Virus record (IMG/VR): IMGVR_UViG_3300021255_003438
Location: 13,508 to 77,507 of that record
Strand: one strand, 5' to 3'
DNA: 64,000 nt
Origin: a virus
Taxonomy: Duplodnaviria; Heunggongvirae; Uroviricota; Caudoviricetes
The notes under the pieces were generated by a model. The model saw nothing but the letters and a program-made list of their open reading frames with translations, searched no databases and was not told where the DNA came from. Every line of letters starts with the position of its first letter. Within the stretch, counting starts at the first letter, position 1. A program made the position numbers and the translations under genes. Of this stretch, positions 9,984-58,313 are shown piece after piece.

Positions 9984-11381
9984 TCAAGTTGTTAGGCTCT
10001 TAATTTTATTCTCTACGACCTCAAAGCATTCATCTTTCGTAATATTTGGATTTTCGAAATAGGCATCTTTGACTGCCTCAAGCAGAACTCCAATTATCGG
10101 CCCACCTTTTAATTTAAATTCTGCCATAATGTCTTTTCCATTTATAGGCAGTTTGATGTTGGCCATCTTATCAATGTCCTCAAGCTCTTCTATTCTGTTA
10201 AGAAGGTCGTACACTTGTCGTTTTTTCTTGTCGTATGTGGAATGTAGGTTATTGGCGTTCATTAGGTCAACCACTGTTCCGATGTCGTTTCCGCATAGAT
10301 TCATGAACTTTCTGATTTTCTTATCTGGAGGTACTACGCCATCCGCATAGATTTTGAAAATCCTATGATATTCTATAGCAGTTTGTACGCTTTTAATGAT
10401 ATGGTTTGGAAACTTCATCATCTTCAAGTCTGCTGCTGCAATCTCTCCGCTAAAGTTATCAGGATTAACTGTTTTGTCCTTATCCGTTATAACCTTTCCA
10501 ACGTCATGGAATAATGCTGCCAATCTGCTTTCAAGGTATGGCTGCGTTTCGTCCAACACATTCATGGTATGGTCAAATGTTGTTACCATTGGGTTTTTAG
10601 ACTCATACGCAAAGTTAGTGTCGTATATATCAGGCATTACCTTGTTCAGCACGCCACAGTAATACATTTTCCTTATGCCAACGCTAGGCTTGCTGCATAA
10701 CAGAATTTTTGAAATTTCATCACTGATTCGTTCTTGTGATACGATTTCCAACCTATTTACGTTTTTAATCATACCAAGCCATGTGTCCTTATCAATACCC
10801 CATCCTAGACGAGTTGAGAAACGAATGACACGCATAATCCTCAATGGGTCATCATTGAACGTTATATCTGGGTCTGTTGGTGTTCGTATGATTTTAGCAC
10901 AAAGGTCAGAATATCCAGTGCCGTTAAAATCGCACAGTTTATCTTGGCTTATGTTGTAATATAAAGAATTGATTGTTAAATCTCTTCTTTTTGCGTCTTC
11001 TTCTATAGTTCCAAATACAGTCTCTGGATTCCTATTTTCTTTATGATACTGCTCCTTACGAGTCTGCACACATTCTATTTCAATGTCCTTAAACTCTTCG
11101 TGTTTATATAATTGGAATTTAGCAGTACCATAGGTCTCAAATATTACAGGATTTGTTGACGTAACAAAACATTGATGTTTCATCGTCATGTATGTGGAGA
11201 ATAGAAGTCCTCCATTTGGTATGTCAATTACCAAATCCAAATCCTTAATTGGAAGCCCTAAGATGCTGTCACGGACAGAGCCACCGACAACGTATACATG
11301 ATTGTCGAAGTGGGTGAACTTAATCGTTTCCCTTATTAGATTTAGAAGCTTTTTTATTTTCTCGTCCTTGAATATTTCCAT
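9984..11381 (-). CDS. cca: tRNA nucleotidyltransferase (CCA-adding enzyme) with HD domain
   Basis: 465 aa. 'VVGGSVRDSILGLPIKDLDLV' is the PolyA-polymerase head motif. 'LFHDVGK' is the HD motif. Confidence 0.8.
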   Translation of the reverse strand: MEIFKDEKIKKLLNLIRETIKFTHFDNHVYVVGGSVRDSILGLPIKDLDLVIDIPNGGLLFSTYMTMKHQCFVTSTNPVIFETYGTAKFQLYKHEEFKDIEIECVQTRKEQYHKENRNPETVFGTIEEDAKRRDLTINSLYYNISQDKLCDFNGTGYSDLCAKIIRTPTDPDITFNDDPLRIMRVIRFSTRLGWGIDKDTWLGMIKNVNRLEIVSQERISDEISKILLCSKPSVGIRKMYYCGVLNKVMPDIYDTNFAYESKNPMVTTFDHTMNVLDETQPYLESRLAALFHDVGKVITDKDKTVNPDNFSGEIAAADLKMMKFPNHIIKSVQTAIEYHRIFKIYADGVVPPDKKIRKFMNLCGNDIGTVVDLMNANNLHSTYDKKKRQVYDLLNRIEELEDIDKMANIKLPINGKDIMAEFKLKGGPIIGVLLEAVKDAYFENPNITKDECFEVVENKIKSLTT

Positions 11382-13000: not shown

Positions 13001-13771
13001 TCAACCATTATTGATTGAACATTCAAATATTGTGACTAATGCATTTGGGTCTAGGTTCTTTATAAACCTATCATAAAACGTACTGACCCATTCAGTTTCA
13101 CTACCTTCAAAGGTATCTACGTCAACCCACCCATCTTTGTCAACAAAGGCATAGTTCCAATAAGAGGTGCTGTAGTTTACATACTCTTCTTCTGATTTGA
13201 ATTTACGGAAATATGCTTCTTTGTCTTTCATGGCGTTATAGATGGCCTCTTCTTCCGTATTTGAAGGTGTTTTACCTTCCATAACCATTTCCCAAGCAGC
13301 TTTATAGACACTTGCGTTTGTGTGTGTCATTGATTCCCAATCCACTTCACTTACATGAGCAGAATAGGCTTCCATACCATTTTTTAATAGCAATGGCATA
13401 GAGAAATTCCTTCCTACCCTACAAGTGTTGAAATGGGCATTAGGATTTTCAGTTGACAAGGCATCACCATCTTCATTGTAATACATTCCATCTGTAAGCT
13501 GTCTGTAATACTCGAATGAAGATTGTTTTTTAAGCTCTTCTAAGCGTGTTTTAAGCGTTTCTTGTGTGGTTGGTGGTATTCCTATCTTATCAGCTTCATC
13601 AAGCAACTTCTCAAGCGTTTTAATAGATGCTTGCTGATACTTCTTAGCCTCAAGATATTTGTACTTGACATATGGTTCGACTTCATAGTCTGCGCCATAT
13701 TTCTCCATCATTTTCTGTGGCTCTTCTCCTACGGCCATTACAGAAAAAAATCTACTATTCGTCTGTGCCAT
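13001..13771 (-). CDS. Hypothetical protein
   Basis: 256 aa ORF. Confidence 0.45.
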   Translation of the reverse strand: MAQTNSRFFSVMAVGEEPQKMMEKYGADYEVEPYVKYKYLEAKKYQQASIKTLEKLLDEADKIGIPPTTQETLKTRLEELKKQSSFEYYRQLTDGMYYNEDGDALSTENPNAHFNTCRVGRNFSMPLLLKNGMEAYSAHVSEVDWESMTHTNASVYKAAWEMVMEGKTPSNTEEEAIYNAMKDKEAYFRKFKSEEEYVNYSTSYWNYAFVDKDGWVDVDTFEGSETEWVSTFYDRFIKNLDPNALVTIFECSINNG

Positions 13772-28363: not shown

Positions 28364-28675
28364 TCATTGCAAGGTATCATGGTCTAATTCTTTTAAAACG
28401 TTATTGGTTAAATCTTTACTTTCTTTTCTGAGGGTTTTAATCTTTTTGTGCGCATTATATTGGTCATATCTGTACGTCCACTTTGTAGCAGTTTTTTTGT
28501 ACTGTTTGACCTTTGAGGATGGGTCAGAGTCAAGTTCTTTCCAATTTTTCGCATTCCTATACCCTCTAGGGGCATTTTTATCTTTAACTATCCAATAGTA
28601 CAAGTTTTTGCTAATGCGAGACACATATTTTGTGTGTGACTTCCACATTCTGAACGCTTTGCCTCTTTTTGTCAT
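28364..28675 (-). CDS. Hypothetical basic protein
   Basis: 103 aa, Lys/Arg-rich. Confidence 0.4.
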   Translation of the reverse strand: MTKRGKAFRMWKSHTKYVSRISKNLYYWIVKDKNAPRGYRNAKNWKELDSDPSSKVKQYKKTATKWTYRYDQYNAHKKIKTLRKESKDLTNNVLKELDHDTLQ

Positions 28676-28771
28676 AGATAAATAGTTTGTAAAGATTATT
28701 TATTCGCTAAATTAATAACGAAATGTTACCAAATGATATGTTTAAAAAGTGTACGAAAAAAACGAACCTTG

Positions 28772-28844
28772 TGATTGGGATGGGACTCAAACCCATATGA
28801 ACAGACTTAGGAGGTCTGTGCCTAATTCTTTCAGCCACCCAACC
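28772..28844 (-). tRNA. tRNA-Arg (anticodon CCT)
   Basis: Acceptor GGTTGGG/CCCAATC (one G-U pair). Anticodon stem CAGAC/GTCTG with loop CTCCTAA. T-arm ATGGG-TTTGAGT-CCCAT. Confidence 0.55.
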
Positions 28845-28898
28845 AAGTAATAAAAAGGCTTACCAACCATTCTCCTAATTGATAAGCCTTAAAAGTGT

Positions 28899-29453
28899 TT
28901 AGTGTCTGCCAAGTCTGAATCTACGATTCATAACTACGCTTGGGTCAGTATCCGCTACCACTGGCGGAGTCTTCCAAGGCTCGTCACTCTCCGTCTTACG
29001 GACGAATCGTCCTCTAGCGTCACGTTTTGCAAGCTCTAGAGCACACGGTGCTTCACGAGGAGCTTCAAAGCGAGGGCAATCTCTACGAACCTCTGGTCTA
29101 CCACACTGAGACTGTCTTGGCTGCACGCAACCGTTAAGCAGTTCAGTAACCACGCAAAGCAATACGGCTGAAGCCACTGGAAGCTCTGGGGTGCTGTCAA
29201 TCAAGTAGACCTCACCACCCTTTACATCGAAAGCAAGGATAGCGTGTACGCCATTCTGTGCATCACGGCTGATTGCGCGTGCCTCTTCGCTACTGAGCTT
29301 ATACTCGCGGTTAGCGTTAGGCGTGGTAGCGCACTCTACATGATTCTCAGAGAGGTGGTAGATTACAAGACGCAGATTTGACTTGTCGCTACACTGTGAC
29401 AGAATTTCAGCCATAGGGCTGTTGTCAGAATGAAGTCTAATGTAATTCCACAT
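28899..29453 (-). CDS. Hypothetical protein, GC-rich compositional outlier
   Basis: 184 aa. Markedly higher GC and Arg/Pro/Ala content than the surrounding AT-rich genes. Confidence 0.4.
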   Translation of the reverse strand: MWNYIRLHSDNSPMAEILSQCSDKSNLRLVIYHLSENHVECATTPNANREYKLSSEEARAISRDAQNGVHAILAFDVKGGEVYLIDSTPELPVASAVLLCVVTELLNGCVQPRQSQCGRPEVRRDCPRFEAPREAPCALELAKRDARGRFVRKTESDEPWKTPPVVADTDPSVVMNRRFRLGRH

Positions 29454-29477
29454 AAATTTCTCTTGTTAGCTAATTAA

Positions 29478-29530
29478 TACTCGTTTGTTTTAAAAAAAAT
29501 AGGTGGGTAGCTTGGTGGCCACCCACCTTT
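29478..29530 (-). terminator. Rho-independent terminator (AGGTGGGT...ACCCACCT hairpin + T-tract on the minus strand)
   Basis: 8-bp stem. The minus strand continues with ATTTTTTTTAAAA. Lies downstream of 29549..29893. Confidence 0.5.
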
Positions 29531-29548
29531 AAAAGAGAGATACAACGA

Positions 29549-29893
29549 TTAATCTGCGTCAGCAGTCTCCTCATCGTCATCGAAGAACTCGTCAAAGGTT
29601 GCCTGAGCAATCTTGAGTTCAACGTTCAGCTCGTAGAGACGAGTCTTAGCGTCCTGCAAGTCAGCAGCCCACTTGGTTGGATTCCAACCCTTCACACCAG
29701 GACGGAGTGAATCAGTGGTGTCTGGAGCGAAATCGGTCAGACCCTGAATCTGCATTTCCACGTTGGTCTTCTCAATCTTAAGCTTGTGGATGATTTCCTC
29801 TTGGGCAATCTTTGCCTGAGTGTTAATCTGTGAAGCACGTGCTACAAGAGCCTTAGAGTCATTCTGACTCATCATCTGTAAAAACTTTCCCAT
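29549..29893 (-). CDS. Hypothetical coiled-coil protein
   Basis: 114 aa. Tandem promoters upstream at 29975-30006 and 30082-30113. Confidence 0.45.
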   Translation of the reverse strand: MGKFLQMMSQNDSKALVARASQINTQAKIAQEEIIHKLKIEKTNVEMQIQGLTDFAPDTTDSLRPGVKGWNPTKWAADLQDAKTRLYELNVELKIAQATFDEFFDDDEETADAD

Positions 29894-35286: not shown

Positions 35287-35398
35287 TCCATATATTTTTT
35301 TTTTATTAAACTTTTTGCAAATATATAAAAAAAAATTGGAAGATACAAATATATCTCCCAACTTTAATTTTGTTTAACAATTTGCCTATATGGATGTG

Positions 35399-35472
35399 TG
35401 AGCGTAGTGGGATTCGAACCCACGAACAACGGTTTTAGAGACCGCCCCAATAGACCACTCTAGCATACGCCC
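35399..35472 (-). tRNA. Candidate suppressor tRNA (anticodon CTA, would read UAG)
   Basis: Acceptor GGGCGTA/TACGCTC. T-arm GTGGG-TTCGAAT-CCCAC. Anticodon stem (G)CGGT/ACCG(T) with loop CTCTAAA (U33, CUA, A37). The D-arm is irregular. Own promoter at 35481-35511. Confidence 0.45.
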
Positions 35473-37193: not shown

Positions 37194-37520
37194 TTAAAGT
37201 TTCTCTACGACCTTTCCGTAGATTTGGTTTCTACCTATCCATCCATTCATGTGACCGTGAGTATTGCCTATTAGGTATTCACTATCATTCTTTATGGCAT
37301 GGATTAGATGCAAATAATGATGACCTCTAACCTTACATAATACAATGTCCTTTTTGTTAAGTTTAGTGTCATCTTTCACAGGTTCACATATTACTGCTTG
37401 CCTTGATTTCAAAAGTGGTAACATAGAATTGCCTATTCCAGTCACCTTACATGTCTCACCTCCTCTGAGGTGGTTGCATGTCTCTTGGTTTTCAAAACCA
37501 CTATAAGTAAAATCTCTCAT
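37194..37520 (-). CDS. S24-family (LexA/UmuD-like) peptidase domain protein
   Basis: 108 aa. 'GNSMLPLL' is the G(D/N)SMxP motif, with a downstream Lys (CKVRG). Confidence 0.5.
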   Translation of the reverse strand: MRDFTYSGFENQETCNHLRGGETCKVTGIGNSMLPLLKSRQAVICEPVKDDTKLNKKDIVLCKVRGHHYLHLIHAIKNDSEYLIGNTHGHMNGWIGRNQIYGKVVEKL

Positions 37521-37686
37521 ATATTGTTAAGTTTTAGATTCACTTACCTAAAAAGATTGAGATTCTTGCAAGCTACATAGTAGTATCTCCTCATTTATGT
37601 CCAGCCCACCGATGAAGGCTTCTACTAGAACTGGTTACCTCCGATTCACACGTGCTTCGCTTTTCTACTATGTAAATCTCAATTTG

Positions 37687-37811
37687 CAGGGACTGATGGA
37701 CTCGAACCACCATTTTTCATTAACAGTTAAAGGCGTAATCTGTTCCGCAGTCGAGACTACGTTAATTCCTTAAATCGTAACAAACCACTCTTACCCTTGA
37801 GCTAAATCCCT
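37687..37811 (-). ncRNA. Long tRNA-like gene (~125 nt) with acceptor + D-arm + T-arm and ~50 extra nt
   Basis: Acceptor AGGGATT/AGTCCCT. D-arm GCTC-AAGGGTAA-GAGT. T-arm GGTGG-TTCGAGT-CCATC. Extra internal hairpins, including AACAG...CTGTT. Confidence 0.35.
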
Positions 37812-38612
37812 ATATAAATATACAAAAGACTGAGAATGTTGTCTTATGTTGATGCCGTCACACAACGGTTGGACGTTGCTCTTCACACGCTGCCTTACAG
37901 CAGACGTAGACACCATGCACGATGATTTTGCGAAAACCACCAAAAAACTTACTAGTTTAAACCTCTCGGTGCAGCATCATAGCTTTCAGTTCTTCGCCAA
38001 GCTCTTGCGGATTCATAGGATGCCTCCTATTAACTCAGGCGAGTACTTTTACACGCTCATTGAATTCCTTGCGAGTCCTCAATGTCTTCATATTGCAGAA
38101 GAATAAGTGCATTTTAGCTGCCTAGTGTCGCGCACTTTTGCTAATATAAAACCGTTTGAATCAACATTTCAAAATTTTATTGCCCATGACCTTGGAAGAC
38201 GAGGCGCGACCCATCGCATTCGTACCTTTTGAGTACGACCCACGAAATCGCCTTCCTACAAAGACTCACCACAAGTCCAATTGCTGTTATGCACTATCAG
38301 CCTTACGGTTCTCACGCCTTTCAGCGCAAGACTAGCGAATAACTAAACCCAACACGCCAACTGGTGATTATTGCATCGAGTTCAGCACAGTAATCTATTG
38401 TGTCACCACTCATCCAAAGACTCTTCGCCCTTGGAAACCTACACCTATGGTGTTACCCACGATGTAGACCGTACTATGCTCTTTTCAGTGAAATGCCTCA
38501 GTCAGCCAAGGCATCTGCAACGCTACTTGGTCAATTTCACGCCACATTTATCCTATCACTAGATTATCCTTAATGGCTACGAAAGCTAGCCAAAACCCCT
38601 TGCGAGATTCGT
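37800..38612 (-). ncRNA. GC-richer ~0.8 kb region with no ORFs: candidate large structured RNA or degenerate tRNA-like array
   Basis: No ORF over 90 codons on either strand. GC visibly higher than its flanks. Long-range complementarity (for example GGAAGACGAGGCG...CGCCTTCC, TTCGTAC...GTACGA). Embedded between tRNA genes on the transcribed strand. Confidence 0.3.
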
Positions 38613-38722
38613 TGGTAAGAAGAGATTTGCACTCTTGAAGCCTCCGAAGAGGCACATCAAGCACGAACTTGATGCCCATTTGTCTACATCAGTCTCTCGA
38701 CTGTTCTCCTCTGGTACTTACC
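38613..38722 (-). ncRNA. Long tRNA-like gene A (~110 nt), tandem paralog of 38760..38866
   Basis: Acceptor GGTAAGT/TCTTACC. T-arm AAGAG-TGCAAAT-CTCTT. Internal hairpins (GCATCAAG...CTTGATGTGC, GCCTC-TTCG-GAGGC). Conserved 5' blocks AGAGGAGAACA and GATGTAGACAAAT shared with its neighbour. Confidence 0.4.
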
Positions 38723-38759
38723 AAAAGGTGGTTTTTCAATTTGTCCACCACAAAATAGT

Positions 38760-38866
38760 TGGTAGAGCTAGATTTGCACTAGCGAAGCCACCTAAGTAGC
38801 ACAATACTTACCGTATTGCCGATTTGTCTACATCACCATCACTGGTGTTCTCCTCTCGTATCTACC
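38760..38866 (-). ncRNA. Long tRNA-like gene B (~107 nt), tandem paralog
   Basis: Acceptor GGTAGAT/CTCTACC. T-arm CTAG(A)-TGCAAAT-CTAG. Shares the 5' conserved blocks with gene A. Confidence 0.4.
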
Positions 38867-38875
38867 AAATGTAGT

Positions 38876-38954
38876 TGCGGAAGTGGGATTTGCACCCACG
38901 AACCTTACGGACTAGCTTATGAAACTAGCGAGATTGACTACTCCTCCATTCCGC
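38876..38954 (-). tRNA. tRNA (anticodon CAT) with an extended variable region
   Basis: Acceptor GCGGAAT/(C)TTCCGC. Anticodon stem CTAGT/GCTAG with loop TTCATAA. T-arm GTGGG-TGCAAAT-CCCAC. Confidence 0.5.
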
Positions 38955-39067
38955 TATGTTAAAAATAAGGAAACGTTTTTGTTTTTTCAAGAAACATTTA
39001 CATACTTAAGCTAGTTGCTGTGCGTTTCCACTATTCTATGAATTTTATTATCTTTTTTCCAACTGCG

Positions 39068-39099
39068 CAAAGATATAAAAAATATTTTTAATATCCAAA
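39068..39099 (-). promoter_or_regulatory. Bacteroidetes-type promoter upstream of the tRNA cluster unit
   Basis: caaagata at 39068-39075 and ccaaa at 39095-39099, spacer 19 nt. Confidence 0.55.
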
Positions 39100-39103
39100 T
39101 TTT

Positions 39104-39370
39104 TTACGAACTTTTTTCAGCTTTTTTGAAAAATTCTTTCAACTTGGCCAATTCTGCAAGTTGGAAAGTGTATTCATCAGCACTGATTATCAATTCATCT
39201 TTATCTTCTTCAATGTTAACAATCTGTGCCTTTAGCTTTTCAATAAGGCTTGCTTTTAATGCATCACGATACTTGACGCTAACTATATTAGTAGCTTCGC
39301 CTTTACTGTACCCAGCATCACATAAGTTCTTATACAACTCGTTTCTAAACTCTTTGTCTAATATTTTCAT
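39104..39370 (-). CDS. Hypothetical protein
   Basis: 88 aa. Promoter at 39393-39424. Confidence 0.4.
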   Translation of the reverse strand: MKILDKEFRNELYKNLCDAGYSKGEATNIVSVKYRDALKASLIEKLKAQIVNIEEDKDELIISADEYTFQLAELAKLKEFFKKAEKSS

Positions 39371-39690: not shown

Positions 39691-40391
39691 GTTAAGTGGA
39701 GCTAGAGTGAAATAAATCTCATTAAACTCCGTACTTTTCCACATTTGTAAATATTTATATTAAAATCAATATTACTATGTCAAAAAAATATAACTTTAAT
39801 CGTAAACTAGGTACAGTTAAATGTGATAATTGCGGCAAAGAATTCCAAAAGCCCCAATCAGAAATTAACCGTAACGCTAAACTCAATAGAAATAACTACT
39901 GCTGTAGAGAATGTTCTGCTGAAGGGGTTAGAAAAACTAGATTGAATTTACCTTATAAACCAGCATCTAAAAAAATGTTAGAACATTTAAAAGATATTTG
40001 TGGAAATCATCGTGATGATTACACTCCATTCAGATATTCTTTAAGATGCGCTAAAAGACGTTTTAAAGACGTTAATGTAACTTTGGAAGACTTAAAAGAA
40101 ATATGGGAAAAACAAAATGGTGTTTGCCCATACACTGGTTTTAAACTAATTCTTCCTGAAAACTCTAATGTGAATAAAATCGATTTTTTTCATAGAGCAT
40201 CTTTAGATAGAATAGATTCTTCACTTGGTTACATTAAAGGTAACATTCAATTTATTTCTACACCTATTAACTTGATGAAACAAACACAAAGTGATGCAAG
40301 CGTTAAACAATTCCTAAAAGAAATTTCAAGTTATACATCAAAACTTTTATAAGTGTCTGATTTTCAAGTAGTTAAGTGGAGCTAGAGTGAA
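39691..40391 (+). mobile_element. Free-standing HNH homing endonuclease insertion flanked by a 21-bp direct repeat derived from a tRNA 3' end
   Basis: Identical gttaagtggagctagagtgaa at 39691-39711 and 40371-40391. The right copy continues into an intact T-arm (GAGTG-TTCGATT-CACTC). The only sizeable plus-strand gene in the window. Confidence 0.55.
39777..40352 (+). CDS. HNH homing endonuclease
   Basis: 191 aa. 'FFHRASLDRIDSSLGYIKGNIQFIS...N' matches the HNH_3 motif. N-terminal Cys pairs (CDNCGK...CCREC). Confidence 0.65.
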   Translation: MSKKYNFNRKLGTVKCDNCGKEFQKPQSEINRNAKLNRNNYCCRECSAEGVRKTRLNLPYKPASKKMLEHLKDICGNHRDDYTPFRYSLRCAKRRFKDVNVTLEDLKEIWEKQNGVCPYTGFKLILPENSNVNKIDFFHRASLDRIDSSLGYIKGNIQFISTPINLMKQTQSDASVKQFLKEISSYTSKLL

Positions 40392-40762
40392 TCGAACACT
40401 CGTCCATACTACCATCCCATAAGAGATTATACAAGCTTTAAAATTGGAAAGTTGACATTGCTGTCCTCACCGCCACCTCATTTTGCGAAAACGAGGAAAA
40501 CTAGGGGGATGACTAGAGTCATCAGTCCACCATTCGGTTTTAAGAAACCGACAAAAAGTTGCTAGGATGTTCTGTTCCTAAGAGCCTAGCCTCTCGGCTT
40601 ACATTACGCAGCTATTGCGTACTCGTAAGCAGGAGTATCAATATACTCGCCGTTTATTTTTTTCTTGCTATTTCTAGTGTATGCCCACTGCTTGTCTCTT
40701 ACCAAATGCATAGCTGTCTATACCATTGTAGCCCCATTGTGTCAAAGAACTCTTTCTTGTTG

Positions 40763-48028: not shown

Positions 48029-48299
48029 AAAATAAAGGAATATACTAGCGAATCGTGTGTTGTATTTCACTCCACGTCTTTGACCACTACCATTTCATCA
48101 ATCCATTTCGTCTACCATACTTTCACATGTTTGGAATAATTAGATAATCAGTAATAACGACTATAGTCTCCTGAAGTTTGTCCATCTAATCCATGTTATT
48201 CATACAGCCTATTCTTTCATTTGTAATTTAATACAGATGATACTCTATGCATCACGAACTTACTGTTCTTCCGACCTTTATTCCTTTGTGGAGCTGAAG

Positions 48300-48372
48300 A
48301 GAATCGAACTCTCCCACGAACCTTGCAAAAGTCCATCGCCAGCCTTGGAACATGCAACCCCAAGCAATGCAC
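48300..48372 (-). ncRNA. tRNA-like element (acceptor with G3:U70, canonical T-arm, no clean anticodon stem)
   Basis: Acceptor GGGGTTG/CAGCTCC. T-arm GAGAG-TTCGATT-CTCTT. A palindromic TTTTGCAA sits where the anticodon arm should be. Confidence 0.3.
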
Positions 48373-49670: not shown

Positions 49671-49677
49671 CCAATTT

Positions 49678-49748
49678 TGTGGATGCAATAGGATTCGAAC
49701 CTATGTTTTTTTACCATTGTATATGGTCACTCCCCAGAGGAGTCCTTA
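49678..49748 (-). ncRNA. tRNA-like element (good acceptor/T-arm, aberrant D/anticodon region)
   Basis: Acceptor GGATGCG/TGCATCC. T-arm ATAGG-TTCGAAT-CCTAT. ACCA-TATACAA-TGGT hairpin. Confidence 0.35.
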
Positions 49749-49761
49749 CACGCATCCATAT

Positions 49762-49953
49762 TTAGTCATTACAAAAATGTACCCAATAGGTATCATCTTT
49801 AATATCCTTTAAAACTTTTTTCCTATCCCAATTATGTAGTATACATAATTTCCATAACATTTTTTTAGATAAAGGATTTATACACCCAAAAGGTGTAGTT
49901 CCAATAAGAGAATTTAACACCTCAATATGCTTTGTGTTACGTATTTTATGCAT
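49762..49953 (-). CDS. Small hypothetical protein. Start adjusted because the annotated 5' end overlaps tRNA-Asp.
   Basis: The ORF track gives 49762..50022. Its first 23 codons translate tRNA-Asp. The Met at 49953 (MHKIRNTK) fits. Confidence 0.25.
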   Translation of the reverse strand: MHKIRNTKHIEVLNSLIGTTPFGCINPLSKKMLWKLCILHNWDRKKVLKDIKDDTYWVHFCND

Positions 49954-52040: not shown

Positions 52041-52459
52041 ATAAAAAGGAAACGTAGGTTTTCGAGCTTGCTTATTCTGCTATTACTATGAGGGTGGTAT
52101 TTCAAGATTGACTCCACACATCCTAGCGAATATGCTTCAACGTCTCCCACCTATCCTACACTCATATGCCATTGCTACTGTTATTCACAAGAGTAACACG
52201 TTATGCAGCCCTAGCCTTATCTTTTGGAATTGTAACGAGTTAAGATTTCATATGCTGTACGTTTCCGATATATTGTGTCAATTGCGACAAAAGAAAAAAG
52301 GAACGACCAATTTTATGTCTTGGCTCGACATTCGCCCCGAAGAGCATAGGTAAGTGCCTCGCAATGATGATTTAACGCTTCTCTTACCTTCGTCTAGTCT
52401 GAATTAAAAATGTGTTCTTATAAATTTATTTTAATCAAACTGCTGTACGTTCCTACTTG

Positions 52460-54957: not shown

Positions 54958-55231
54958 AATTTCTTGAGCAGTGTAGGAGATTCGAACTCCCTCCTTGACC
55001 TTGGCAAGGTTATATGCTACCATTAACACCAACACTGCAAAGTCAGTTTTTATAACCGTAAAACTGAAAAACTTCCTCCACCTACGATGAGGCAATAGTT
55101 TGAATCCCTTCAGGGACTACTGACGTTACGTTGAGCCTCAAATCTCTTTTGATAGTCTTTTTTAACGTGCAGATAATCTAGCAAGTAGTATGTACACGAT
55201 ATTTTAAGGAAACGTTTGTTGTTTATTTTTT

Positions 55232-55320
55232 AGTGCTCTAACCAACTGAGCTACCACGCTATGTTATTATGATTTAGTAGCGTGGACAGGATTCGAACCT
55301 GTGACCCCTAGCTTGAAATG
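55232..55320 (-). ncRNA. Permuted/split tRNA-like unit A: 3' half then 17-nt linker then 5' half
   Basis: On the sense strand: ...GGGTC-ACAGG-TTCGAAT-CCTGT-CCACGCT-A, then CTAAATCATAATAACAT, then AGCGTGG-TA-GCTC-AGTTGGTTA-GAGC-A, then an A-rich tail. The acceptor strands are perfectly complementary (7/7). Confidence 0.45.
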
Positions 55321-55358
55321 CTTTTTAAACGATGTACTTTGCTGTACGTTTCCACTTG

Positions 55359-57359: not shown

Positions 57360-57432
57360 TCTAGGTGAAGGGACTTGAACCCCCGACCACAGCCGCCCAA
57401 GGGCCGCATTCTACCTACTGAACTACACCTAG
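57360..57432 (-). tRNA. tRNA-Pro (anticodon TGG)
   Basis: Acceptor CTAGGTG/CACCTAG is perfect. D-arm GTTC-AGTAGGTA-GAAT. Anticodon stem CGGCC/GGCTG with loop CTTGGGC. T-loop TTCAAGT. Confidence 0.6.
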
Positions 57433-57460
57433 ATTTTTCGGAAACATTTTTTATTTTTTA

Positions 57461-57530
57461 CATTGCTCTACCAACTGAGCTACAACGAGCTATTGCCCAT
57501 TGAAGAGACTCGAACTCTTGACCTACGGAT
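57461..57530 (-). ncRNA. Permuted/split tRNA-like unit B (3' half then 5-nt linker then 5' half)
   Basis: On the sense strand: AAGAG-TTCGAGT-CTCTT-CAATGGG-C, then AATAG, then CTCGTTG-TA-GCTC-AGTTGGTA-GAGC-A, then an A-rich tail. Acceptor strands pair 7/7 with two G-U. Confidence 0.4.
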
Positions 57531-57732
57531 TACAAATCATAATAAAAACGTTTGCATTGCTGTATGTTTCCTTTTATGTTTTATGAAACTGTTTTGGCTC
57601 TATGCTTTCTGTTCTATCACGTTCCAATACGTAATCCCTAAGAAGGGTTAGGCTTAACGAATTATTCTTTTACATTTCATTCGCCCTCTTGCTACGATAG
57701 CAAGACTGTGATTACTCACCGTTCAGTCTCAT

Positions 57733-58242: not shown

Positions 58243-58313
58243 TCGGTAGGTTGAGACTCGAACTCAAATCTCTTAGTAAAAGCCAAGGCTCTAACCCATT
58301 GAGCTACCCATCG
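58243..58313 (-). ncRNA. tRNA-like gene (canonical D- and T-arms, unresolved anticodon stem)
   Basis: D-arm GCTC-AATGGGTTA-GAGC. T-arm TTGAG-TTCGAGT-CTCAA. Acceptor pairs 6/7. Confidence 0.4.

Follow-up and report, generated by a model that had tools for sequence, protein, structure and literature searches.

The locus considered here raises the question of what occupies a long stretch without sizeable open reading frames (ORFs) in the tRNA island of a phage known from the IMG/VR virus record IMGVR_UViG_3300021255_003438. The window, that is, the whole stretch of DNA that was analysed, comprises 64,000 nt (positions 13,508 to 77,507 of that record). The initial annotation had singled out positions 37800-38612 as a candidate large structured non-coding RNA and had named GOLLD among its first guesses, a proposal now borne out by an end-to-end match of the 3' half of the RNA to the Rfam GOLLD model (E = 1.3e-18). 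Given the findings described below, positions 37823-38611 of the minus strand (~789 nt) are very probably a divergent member of the GOLLD family, belonging to a lineage of uncultivated huge phages. The element is a conserved non-coding RNA of ~790 nt; its sequence lineage is new, and the kind of element, GOLLD, is already known.

Several general properties of the region had been read correctly at the outset. As claimed, it lies in the window's longest stretch without an ORF of at least 90 codons under genetic code 11 (37521-39125, 1605 nt, which includes 37800-38612), and the longest ORF overlapping 37800-38612 has 86 aa. The GC content of 37800-38612 is 44.3%, and that of the RNA itself 45.0%, against a window mean of 36.0%; the region is indeed GC-richer, but the flanks of ~30% GC that had been described are found on one side only (29.1% versus 37.7%). 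No tRNA is found inside 37812-38610 by ARAGORN, either at default settings or relaxed with introns allowed, or by the Rfam tRNA model, in agreement with the statement that the region holds no canonical tRNA. The embedding in a tRNA island also stands: by ARAGORN, the window contains at least 32 tRNAs and a transfer-messenger RNA (tmRNA), all on the minus strand and spanning 27.3-60.6 kb around the RNA. No strand had been given for the candidate; it is the minus strand, as for every tRNA of the island. The borders are an atypical tRNA (37684-37811) on one side and tRNA-like genes from 38611 upward on the other. An array of degenerate tRNA fragments, which had been offered as a possible alternative, describes these flanks (38611-38869 and 37684-37811) rather than the RNA itself, and was rejected for the latter: neither relaxed ARAGORN nor the model R2 finds a cloverleaf inside 37812-38610, and such units occur in the flanks only. 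A GOLLD-like RNA explains why this part of the genome is ORF-free and GC-richer.

The identification is carried in the first place by the 3' half of the RNA. Positions 37827-38256 (minus strand) match the Rfam GOLLD model, RF02032 (the accession RF01998 quoted previously is wrong), over model positions 1-416 of 416, with 73.2 bits and an E-value of 1.3e-18 when the region is searched or 4.8e-17 when the whole window is searched. GOLLD features that reappear in the alignment are an initial hairpin with the loop UCAAAAG, an unstructured linker rich in A and U, the motifs AGCAAAAGU and CUCGCAAGG, the long-range helix, the 3' three-way region, and a terminal hairpin that bears UCUCAG. The signature motifs (the A-rich L14 loop, AGCAAAAGU, CUCGCAAGG, and UCUCAG near the 3' end) lie at the aligned model positions and show little or no variation across 21 sequences; alongside AGCAAAAGU, CUCGCAAGG, and UUCUCAG, a CCGCAAG motif is also conserved. 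The RNA thus follows the GOLLD two-domain plan, comprising a 5' domain and a conserved, pseudoknot-containing 3' domain along with the P14 hairpin and a variable linker. With permissive filters, positions 37400-39100 give no match to ROOL, group I or group II introns, RNase P, HEARO, or tmRNA at E-values up to 10, which disposes of the group I intron and RNase P that had been listed as alternatives, as well as of ROOL.

Relatives were sought in IMG/VR with a pattern consisting of AGCAAAAGU, a gap of 50-80 nt, and then CUCGCAAGG, which yielded at least 120 loci. Among the matches listed, four are closely related to the block over its full 1.3 kb: L068 (93% identity, on a 129-kb contig), L040 and L069 (~80%, on 412-kb contigs), and L016 (73%, on a 93-kb contig). 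These four score 70-79 bits against the GOLLD model. A search with a clade-specific 5'-domain motif found 8 viral and 23 metagenome contigs, so that ~30 related clade loci, on IMG/VR and metagenome contigs of up to 412 kb, are available in all. From these, 21 distinct and nearly complete sequences, just 70-80% identical, were aligned (alignment A4). Furthermore, a hidden Markov model (HMM) of the clade's 3' domain matches, among the matches listed, ~50 sub-threshold large-phage loci end to end (E = 1e-32 to 1e-16).

The strong structural evidence is comparative and does not come from single-sequence energy, which is modestly better than that of shuffled sequences (z = -2.33, 20 shuffles). RNAalifold predicts 199 pairs from alignment A4, 90 of them with compensatory changes. 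In the structure that was counted, one spurious two-pair helix was removed from the RNAalifold prediction and the pseudoknot was added, giving 203 pairs. Over these 203 pairs in the 21 sequences, 98.7% of the alignment cells are paired, compared with 89.6% in shuffled controls and 34-44% in slid controls; 90 pairs are changed on both sides, compared with 50.4 ± 3.5 in shuffled controls (none of 500 reaches 90) and 5-19 in slid controls. Within the 3' domain, P14, the long-range helix, the hairpins with CGCAA-type loops, the 3' three-way region, and the terminal hairpin are all 98-100% paired with compensatory changes. In addition, 42 large-phage sequences from outside the clade, aligned by HMM and not by structure, are 94-99% paired at P14, long-range helix a, the pseudoknot, and helices 22, 23, 25, and 33; in the same sequences, pairing falls to 70-80% at helices 26, 27, and 32.

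The pseudoknot provides a further line of evidence. It is formed by AUGCAC (38107-38112) with GUGCAU (37915-37920) and is invariant within the clade. In the 42 other large-phage sequences it reads AACAAC/GUUGUU, with 97.9% of cells paired compared with 22-49% in slid controls, and in the Rfam consensus it reads gugaC/Gucac. Three of its positions change on both sides between lineages. Because the sequence differs among the clade, the other large phages, and Rfam, the pseudoknot has been retained through changes on both sides. The long-range complementarity that had been noticed by inspection is both real and conserved; ACUAG/CUAGU and AUGCAC/GUGCAU are examples.

Several observations nevertheless weigh against assigning the whole RNA to GOLLD. 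The 73.2-bit match lies below the Rfam gathering score of 150, so that gathering-threshold output is silent in the region. In the central arm, the fit to the Rfam consensus is poor, with non-canonical pairs marked and insertions differing in length, and helices 25-27 of this arm adopt a fold unlike the consensus, each with compensatory changes in the clade. The remodelled arm sits where solved GOLLDs carry inter-subunit kissing loops, and for that reason the number of subunits, or the assembly itself, may differ. The clade 5'-domain HMM, used with nhmmer, matches clade members only, and the tie between this 5' domain and the canonical ones depends on weak matches of the covariance model R1 (see below). 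Finally, a promoter and terminator scan, whose coverage does not extend to other promoter types such as those of Bacteroidota, gave counts equal to chance, and it therefore supplies no usable transcript boundaries.

The low score is best considered together with those of the relatives. All of the matches are full-length, adjoin tRNAs, and form a continuum, from 70-79 bits in this clade, through 77-105 bits in 10 other large-phage loci that were scored, to 182-280 bits in the 6 canonical GOLLD loci, as counted among the matches listed in the same IMG/VR scan. Because the intermediate scores of the other large-phage loci partly bridge the gap, the gathering threshold is, as judged from these sequences, an annotation cut-off that leaves out a whole lineage rather than one that marks the boundary of the family. 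In the cryo-electron microscopy study of Kretsch et al., GOLLDs were gathered by cmsearch at E < 1e-5. The Rfam scan that had been recommended for this region is accordingly sensitive to how it is run: default cmscan output, at the gathering threshold, is empty here, but E-value mode returns GOLLD. The accompanying rule, by which the lack of an Rfam hit was to count against a structured RNA, is wrongly triggered by the default scan because 73 bits is below the gathering score.

For the 5' domain, comparison within the clade is again informative. When five sequences were compared, 95% of cells were paired over 118 pairs, with 27 compensatory pairs compared with 13.7 ± 2.2 in shuffled controls, and the counts from the 21 sequences agree with these. 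Beyond the clade, R1, which was built from the 3' part of the 5' domain, gives weak matches of 10-18 bits that abut the start of the 3' domain in nine loci (L092, L093, L024, L056, L010, L067, and L018, together with the canonical L005 and L001). Since these matches are placed exactly against 3' domains, they exceed what would be expected by chance in ~0.9 Mb. The clade 5' and 3' HMMs find no nhmmer match in env-38, of which an 816-nt copy from the paper's supplement was searched (the full length is 833 nt). In global alignments compared with shuffles, the 5' domains give z = 0.1, but the 3' domains, which are known to be related, reach only z = 1.6; tests of primary sequence are therefore without power at this distance. 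By eye, env-38 shares with the 5' domain the ordered motifs GGAUAAAGUGG, GGGUAACAC, and a GAAA hairpin, an observation that is a lead and not a test. The 5' domain is regarded as a likely homologue of canonical P1-P13.

The anatomy of the RNA can be laid out from these alignments, with all positions on the minus strand. The GOLLD-like 5' domain (38257-38610) is ~354 nt long and has ~15 helices, as judged from RNAalifold and the pair counts. It includes a P1-like hairpin, CUC-GCAA-GGG (38598-38606), a further hairpin (38575-38591), a multi-branch region (38384-38480) with the loop GGGUAACACC at 38449-38458, the long hairpin GAUGCAAUAAUCACCAGUUGGCGUGUUGG (38345-38383), and a GAAA-tetraloop hairpin (38313-38328). 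It is followed by P14, the first hairpin of the 3' domain (38194-38256, GOLLD model positions 1-64), whose loop, CAAAAG at 38226-38231, is invariant in the 21 sequences and whose helices, 16 and 17 in A4, have 100% of cells paired, with compensatory changes in 11 of 21 pairs. In solved GOLLD cages, the A-run of L14 is reported to make an intermolecular A-minor contact (PMC12286853, supplementary text). The 3'-domain core, defined by the Rfam GOLLD alignment and by covariation, extends over 37823-38142. It begins with AGCAAAAGU (38134-38142) and contains the long-range helix, in which 38117-38126 pairs with 37971-37975 and 37951-37955 (ACUAG at 38122-38126 with CUAGU at 37951-37955), then CUCGCAAGG (38067-38075), the remodelled central arm (37981-38057) with a single-stranded CCGCAAG at 38004-38010, and the terminal hairpin (37826-37845), which carries UUCUCAG at 37830-37836.

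Between P14 and the core lies a variable, apparently unstructured linker of 51 nt (38143-38193), which corresponds to columns 524-630 of A4, varies in both length and sequence, and holds no tRNA here. At the same position, five relatives (L016, L124, L129, L132, and L144) carry a whole tRNA, which in L016 falls inside the GOLLD match. The disordered linker of GOLLD sits inside the cage and can embed tRNAs (PMC12286853, PMC12990946). The linker tRNA occupies 10969-11041 in L016 and columns ~535-606 of A4; its body is nearly constant and its anticodon differs between contigs, being UGA in L016 by ARAGORN and, by eye, UAU in L144 and GCC in L124, L129, and L132.

Could the region instead hold a large RNA of another family (ROOL, a group I or group II intron, RNase P, HEARO, or tmRNA) whose likeness to GOLLD is due to chance? 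A phage tRNA island would suit ROOL as well, and the score does fall under the GOLLD gathering threshold. However, none of the other large-RNA families matches at E-values up to 10, and GOLLD matches over all 416 of its positions at E ~1e-18; the tmRNA of the island sits elsewhere, at 40374-40735; and the GOLLD-specific motifs, the linker tRNA of the relatives, and the pseudoknot are all present, making a chance resemblance highly improbable. A protein-coding region read under an alternative code, with TAG as sense, has in its favor two plus-strand ORFs of 183 codons (38371-38922) and 111 codons (38156-38491) that open when TAG is read through, as well as the tRNA with anticodon CUA at 35398-35472. 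These ORFs, however, oppose the strand of every gene of the island, and the longer crosses both tRNA-like genes and runs into tRNA-Met. The homologues lack a common long ORF (the longest stop-free run is 82-166 of ~280 possible codons), substitutions in helices are compensatory, and indels are not multiples of three; a coding function is barely credible. Reassignment of TAG, TGA, or TAA was tried in general and rejected, the resulting ORFs of 79-183 codons lying nearly all on the plus strand and not being common to the homologues.

Another possibility is that the RNA is a relic derived from GOLLD, one that has kept its helices, has lost the cage, and serves as a mere spacer or processing scaffold in a tRNA polycistron. 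The remodelling of the central 3'-domain arm, which bears the kissing loops, and the aberrant tRNA-like genes on both flanks would be in line with such a decay. However, purifying selection on ~200 pairs and many invariant loops, at 70-80% sequence identity, exceeds what a spacer would need. The loops in question include the A-rich L14 loop and the CGCAA-type loops. Furthermore, solved GOLLDs assemble despite the loss of several helices, with a changed number of subunits (PMC12990946). A relic is consequently considered quite unlikely, and the preferred interpretation remains a divergent GOLLD; with the solved cages as a guide, the invariance of the A-rich L14 loop and the conserved CGCAA-type loops accord with contacts having been retained.

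The RNA can be compared with GOLLDs of known structure, env-38 (833 nt, a 14-mer cage, PDB 9MEE) and the Streptococcus agalactiae GOLLD (700 nt, a 12-mer, PDB 9L0R). The family is described as conserved in its 3' domain (P14-P27) and variable in its 5' domain, and as forming assemblies of 10, 12, or 14 subunits according to the helices present (PMC12990946). Common to GOLLD and the RNA of the window are the length of ~0.8 kb, the separate 5' domain, the conserved 3' domain, the long-range helix, the pseudoknot, P14 with its CAAAAG loop, the variable, tRNA-capable linker after P14, AGCAAAAGU, CUCGCAAGG, UUCUCAG, and the location in a phage tRNA cluster; env-38 GOLLD also lies downstream of a Met-tRNA, as does this one (PMC12286853). 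The differences are the score (73 bits here, compared with 182-280 for the canonical members listed in the same scan); the central arm (the P19-P21 region), which folds differently and leaves CCGCAAG single-stranded here rather than in a hairpin loop; a 5' domain alignable by sequence within the clade alone; the sequence of the pseudoknot; the carriers, which are huge uncultivated phages in place of Lactobacillales prophages or the seed's lake and marine samples; and the flanks, which are tRNA-like genes rather than ordinary tRNAs.

Two other systems deserve mention. In the tRNA-array GOLLD of Mycobacterium/Mycolicibacterium, as far as it is summarized in PMC12990946, a tRNA-Phe is embedded in J13/15 (Morgado et al. 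2020). Measured against that summary, the present lineage is similar in its tRNA array and in the complete linker tRNA of L016, L124, L129, L132, and L144, but differs in that the 51-nt linker of the window's copy is without a tRNA and that the anticodons of the relatives' linker tRNAs vary. The RNA is like ROOL in being a large ornate phage RNA near tRNA islands, and ROOL forms RNA-only cages (octamers); unlike ROOL, whose 5' and 3' parts are intertwined, it has two separable domains, and no ROOL match is found at E-values up to 10. The initial annotation quoted RF03087 as the ROOL accession. To our knowledge, GOLLD is among the very few natural RNAs that form protein-free cages.

The genes that surround the RNA form a conserved arrangement on the minus strand, in the order tRNA-Met, tRNA-like copy 2, tRNA-like copy 1, GOLLD-like RNA, and atypical tRNA. 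This order is kept in relatives, and tRNA-Met with the same order is also seen in L016 and L124. The tRNA-Met (CAU; 38874-38955, 82 nt) is called by ARAGORN, scores 44.2 bits with the Rfam tRNA model, and has an extra variable region and the T-loop UGCAAAU. Copy 2 (38758-38869) has the anticodon-like loop CGGUAAG and scores 120.5 bits with model R2; relaxed ARAGORN calls it tRNA-Tyr(gta) with an "intron." Copy 1 (38611-38725; 132 bits with R2), which receives no call by default ARAGORN or by the Rfam tRNA model, stops exactly where the GOLLD-like RNA begins and probably acts as a processing signal. On the other side, the atypical tRNA of ~125 nt (37684-37811) starts 15 nt downstream of the last helix of the GOLLD-like RNA and probably acts as a 3' processing signal. 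Its acceptor, D, and T arms are normal, with an anticodon/variable region expanded by 55-68 nt; the Rfam tRNA model gives 35.3 bits with a 68-nt insertion, and relaxed ARAGORN interprets it as tRNA-Pro(cgg) interrupted by a 31-nt "intron." The gene has been conserved in L068, L040, L069, and L016, where its acceptor, D, and T stems show compensatory changes. The ORFs next to the RNA have no informative Pfam or PHROGs match.

The tRNA-like genes constitute a family in their own right. There are 54 distinct copies (44 aligned), which match no Rfam family and are found only in loci with this GOLLD clade, usually just upstream of the GOLLD, as 1-5 tandem copies per clade locus (for example, at 9666-10506 in L016 and 5641-6097 in L124). 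In the 44 copies, 22 of the 32 cloverleaf pairs show compensatory changes, and the family appears to be derived from a type-II tRNA-Tyr. Some copies retain the loop CUGUAAA; others carry CGGUAAG or an 8-bp stem capped by the loop UUCGUG. The D-loop contains a conserved insertion of ~28 nt, composed of GAGGAGAAC, a GNRA hairpin, and then GAUGUAGACAAA. The T-loop reads UGCAAAU. U1 forms the first pair with A72, beyond which lie A73 and C74, and CCA is not encoded. Tandem copies differ in the inner five pairs of the acceptor stem. Possible roles for such an RNA are those of processing signal, decoy, and cage cargo.

These arrangements suggest how the RNA may be made and used. In the proposed model, it would be co-transcribed with the surrounding minus-strand tRNA genes as part of a tRNA polycistron and would be released by RNase P and by the processing of tRNA 3' ends, both acting at the tRNA-like genes on either side. 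The mature RNA would thus begin immediately past the tRNA-like gene at 38611 and stop immediately short of the atypical tRNA at 37811. By analogy with the three solved GOLLD assemblies (10-, 12-, and 14-mers), kissing loops and A-minor contacts would then join its copies into a closed homo-oligomeric cage with the linker facing inward. The published hypothesis for GOLLD is tRNA handling or ribosome engagement (PMC12286853). The RNA may likewise act in the translation and tRNA program of the phage during infection, most likely by holding or shielding tRNAs or tRNA-like RNAs, or else by engaging ribosomes. A more specific proposal is that this GOLLD lineage and the tandem tRNA-Tyr-derived tRNA-like RNAs form one module, in which the remodelled arm would give a cage whose subunit number or contacts are unlike those of the 10-, 12-, and 14-mers and whose cargo or clients would be the tRNA-like RNAs or, in some relatives, the linker tRNA with its anticodon swapped between phages. 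We regard this as unlikely; if true, it would tie the function of GOLLD directly to the storage, protection, or decoy of tRNA during infection.

Whatever its function, the lineage shows that the GOLLD family reaches well below the Rfam gathering threshold into huge uncultivated phages, and default annotation misses a whole branch because its scores lie below that threshold. The ~30 clade loci (21 aligned) and the ~50 further sub-threshold loci constitute fresh covariation data, and the lineage supplies a naturally occurring variant of the arm on which oligomer contacts depend. Its new genomic partners, the tRNA-like genes and the linker tRNAs with different anticodons, point to tRNA biology and could make the function of GOLLD testable.

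Concerning the phage itself, blastn of 37600-39000 against GenBank phages (INPHARED, sensitive mode) found no match, and related contigs reach 409-412 kb; the source is therefore an uncultivated huge-phage lineage. The window encodes a CCA-adding enzyme (tRNA nucleotidyltransferase) at 9984-11381 on the minus strand (PHROG match, E = 1.5e-61), whose nearest counterparts, ~36% identical, belong to a 735-kb uncultured phage and to Prevotella Lak megaphages, and which fits the island because many of its tRNA and tRNA-like genes do not encode CCA. A tellurite-resistance-like protein and a radical-SAM protein are also encoded in the window.

Other features of the window, all on the minus strand where a strand is assigned, may be recorded here. 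The GC-richest 800 nt (up to 49% GC, with a peak at ~28.9 kb) lie within 28600-29800, a segment that has no Rfam match at E-values up to 0.01, overlaps a 184-aa ORF (28899-29453) without a Pfam match, and adjoins a tRNA-Arg (28771-28844). The tRNA with anticodon CUA is of the suppressor type and is labelled tRNA-Pyl by ARAGORN; TAG may therefore be sense in some phage genes, and ORF lists made with code 11 may split real genes. The tmRNA (40374-40735) has the tag peptide GEYIDTPAYEYAIAA and scores 57.9 bits, above its gathering score, and short, weak tmRNA-like matches are present at 48286-48361 (23.3 bits) and 49677-49784 (18.8 bits). The tRNA at 58243-58313 has an irregular anticodon loop (ARAGORN anticodon "tt"), yet it scores 44.2 bits with the Rfam tRNA model. 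Two full-length matches to YrlA (Y RNA-like, RF02553) also lie in the island, at 55206-55324 (39.8 bits, E = 2.9e-5) and 57431-57549 (34.1 bits, E = 1.3e-3), below the gathering score of 69. Finally, between island tRNAs at 52087-52166, there is an isolated 80-nt copy of the L1 stalk of 23S rRNA (helices 76-78; positions 2131-2210 of the Rfam large-subunit model). It scores 57-63 bits (E = 1.8e-16), is nearly identical to consensus at the GGAUAGGUGGGAG and UGAAAUACCAC strands, and may serve the phage as a mimic of the site that ribosomal protein uL1 binds.

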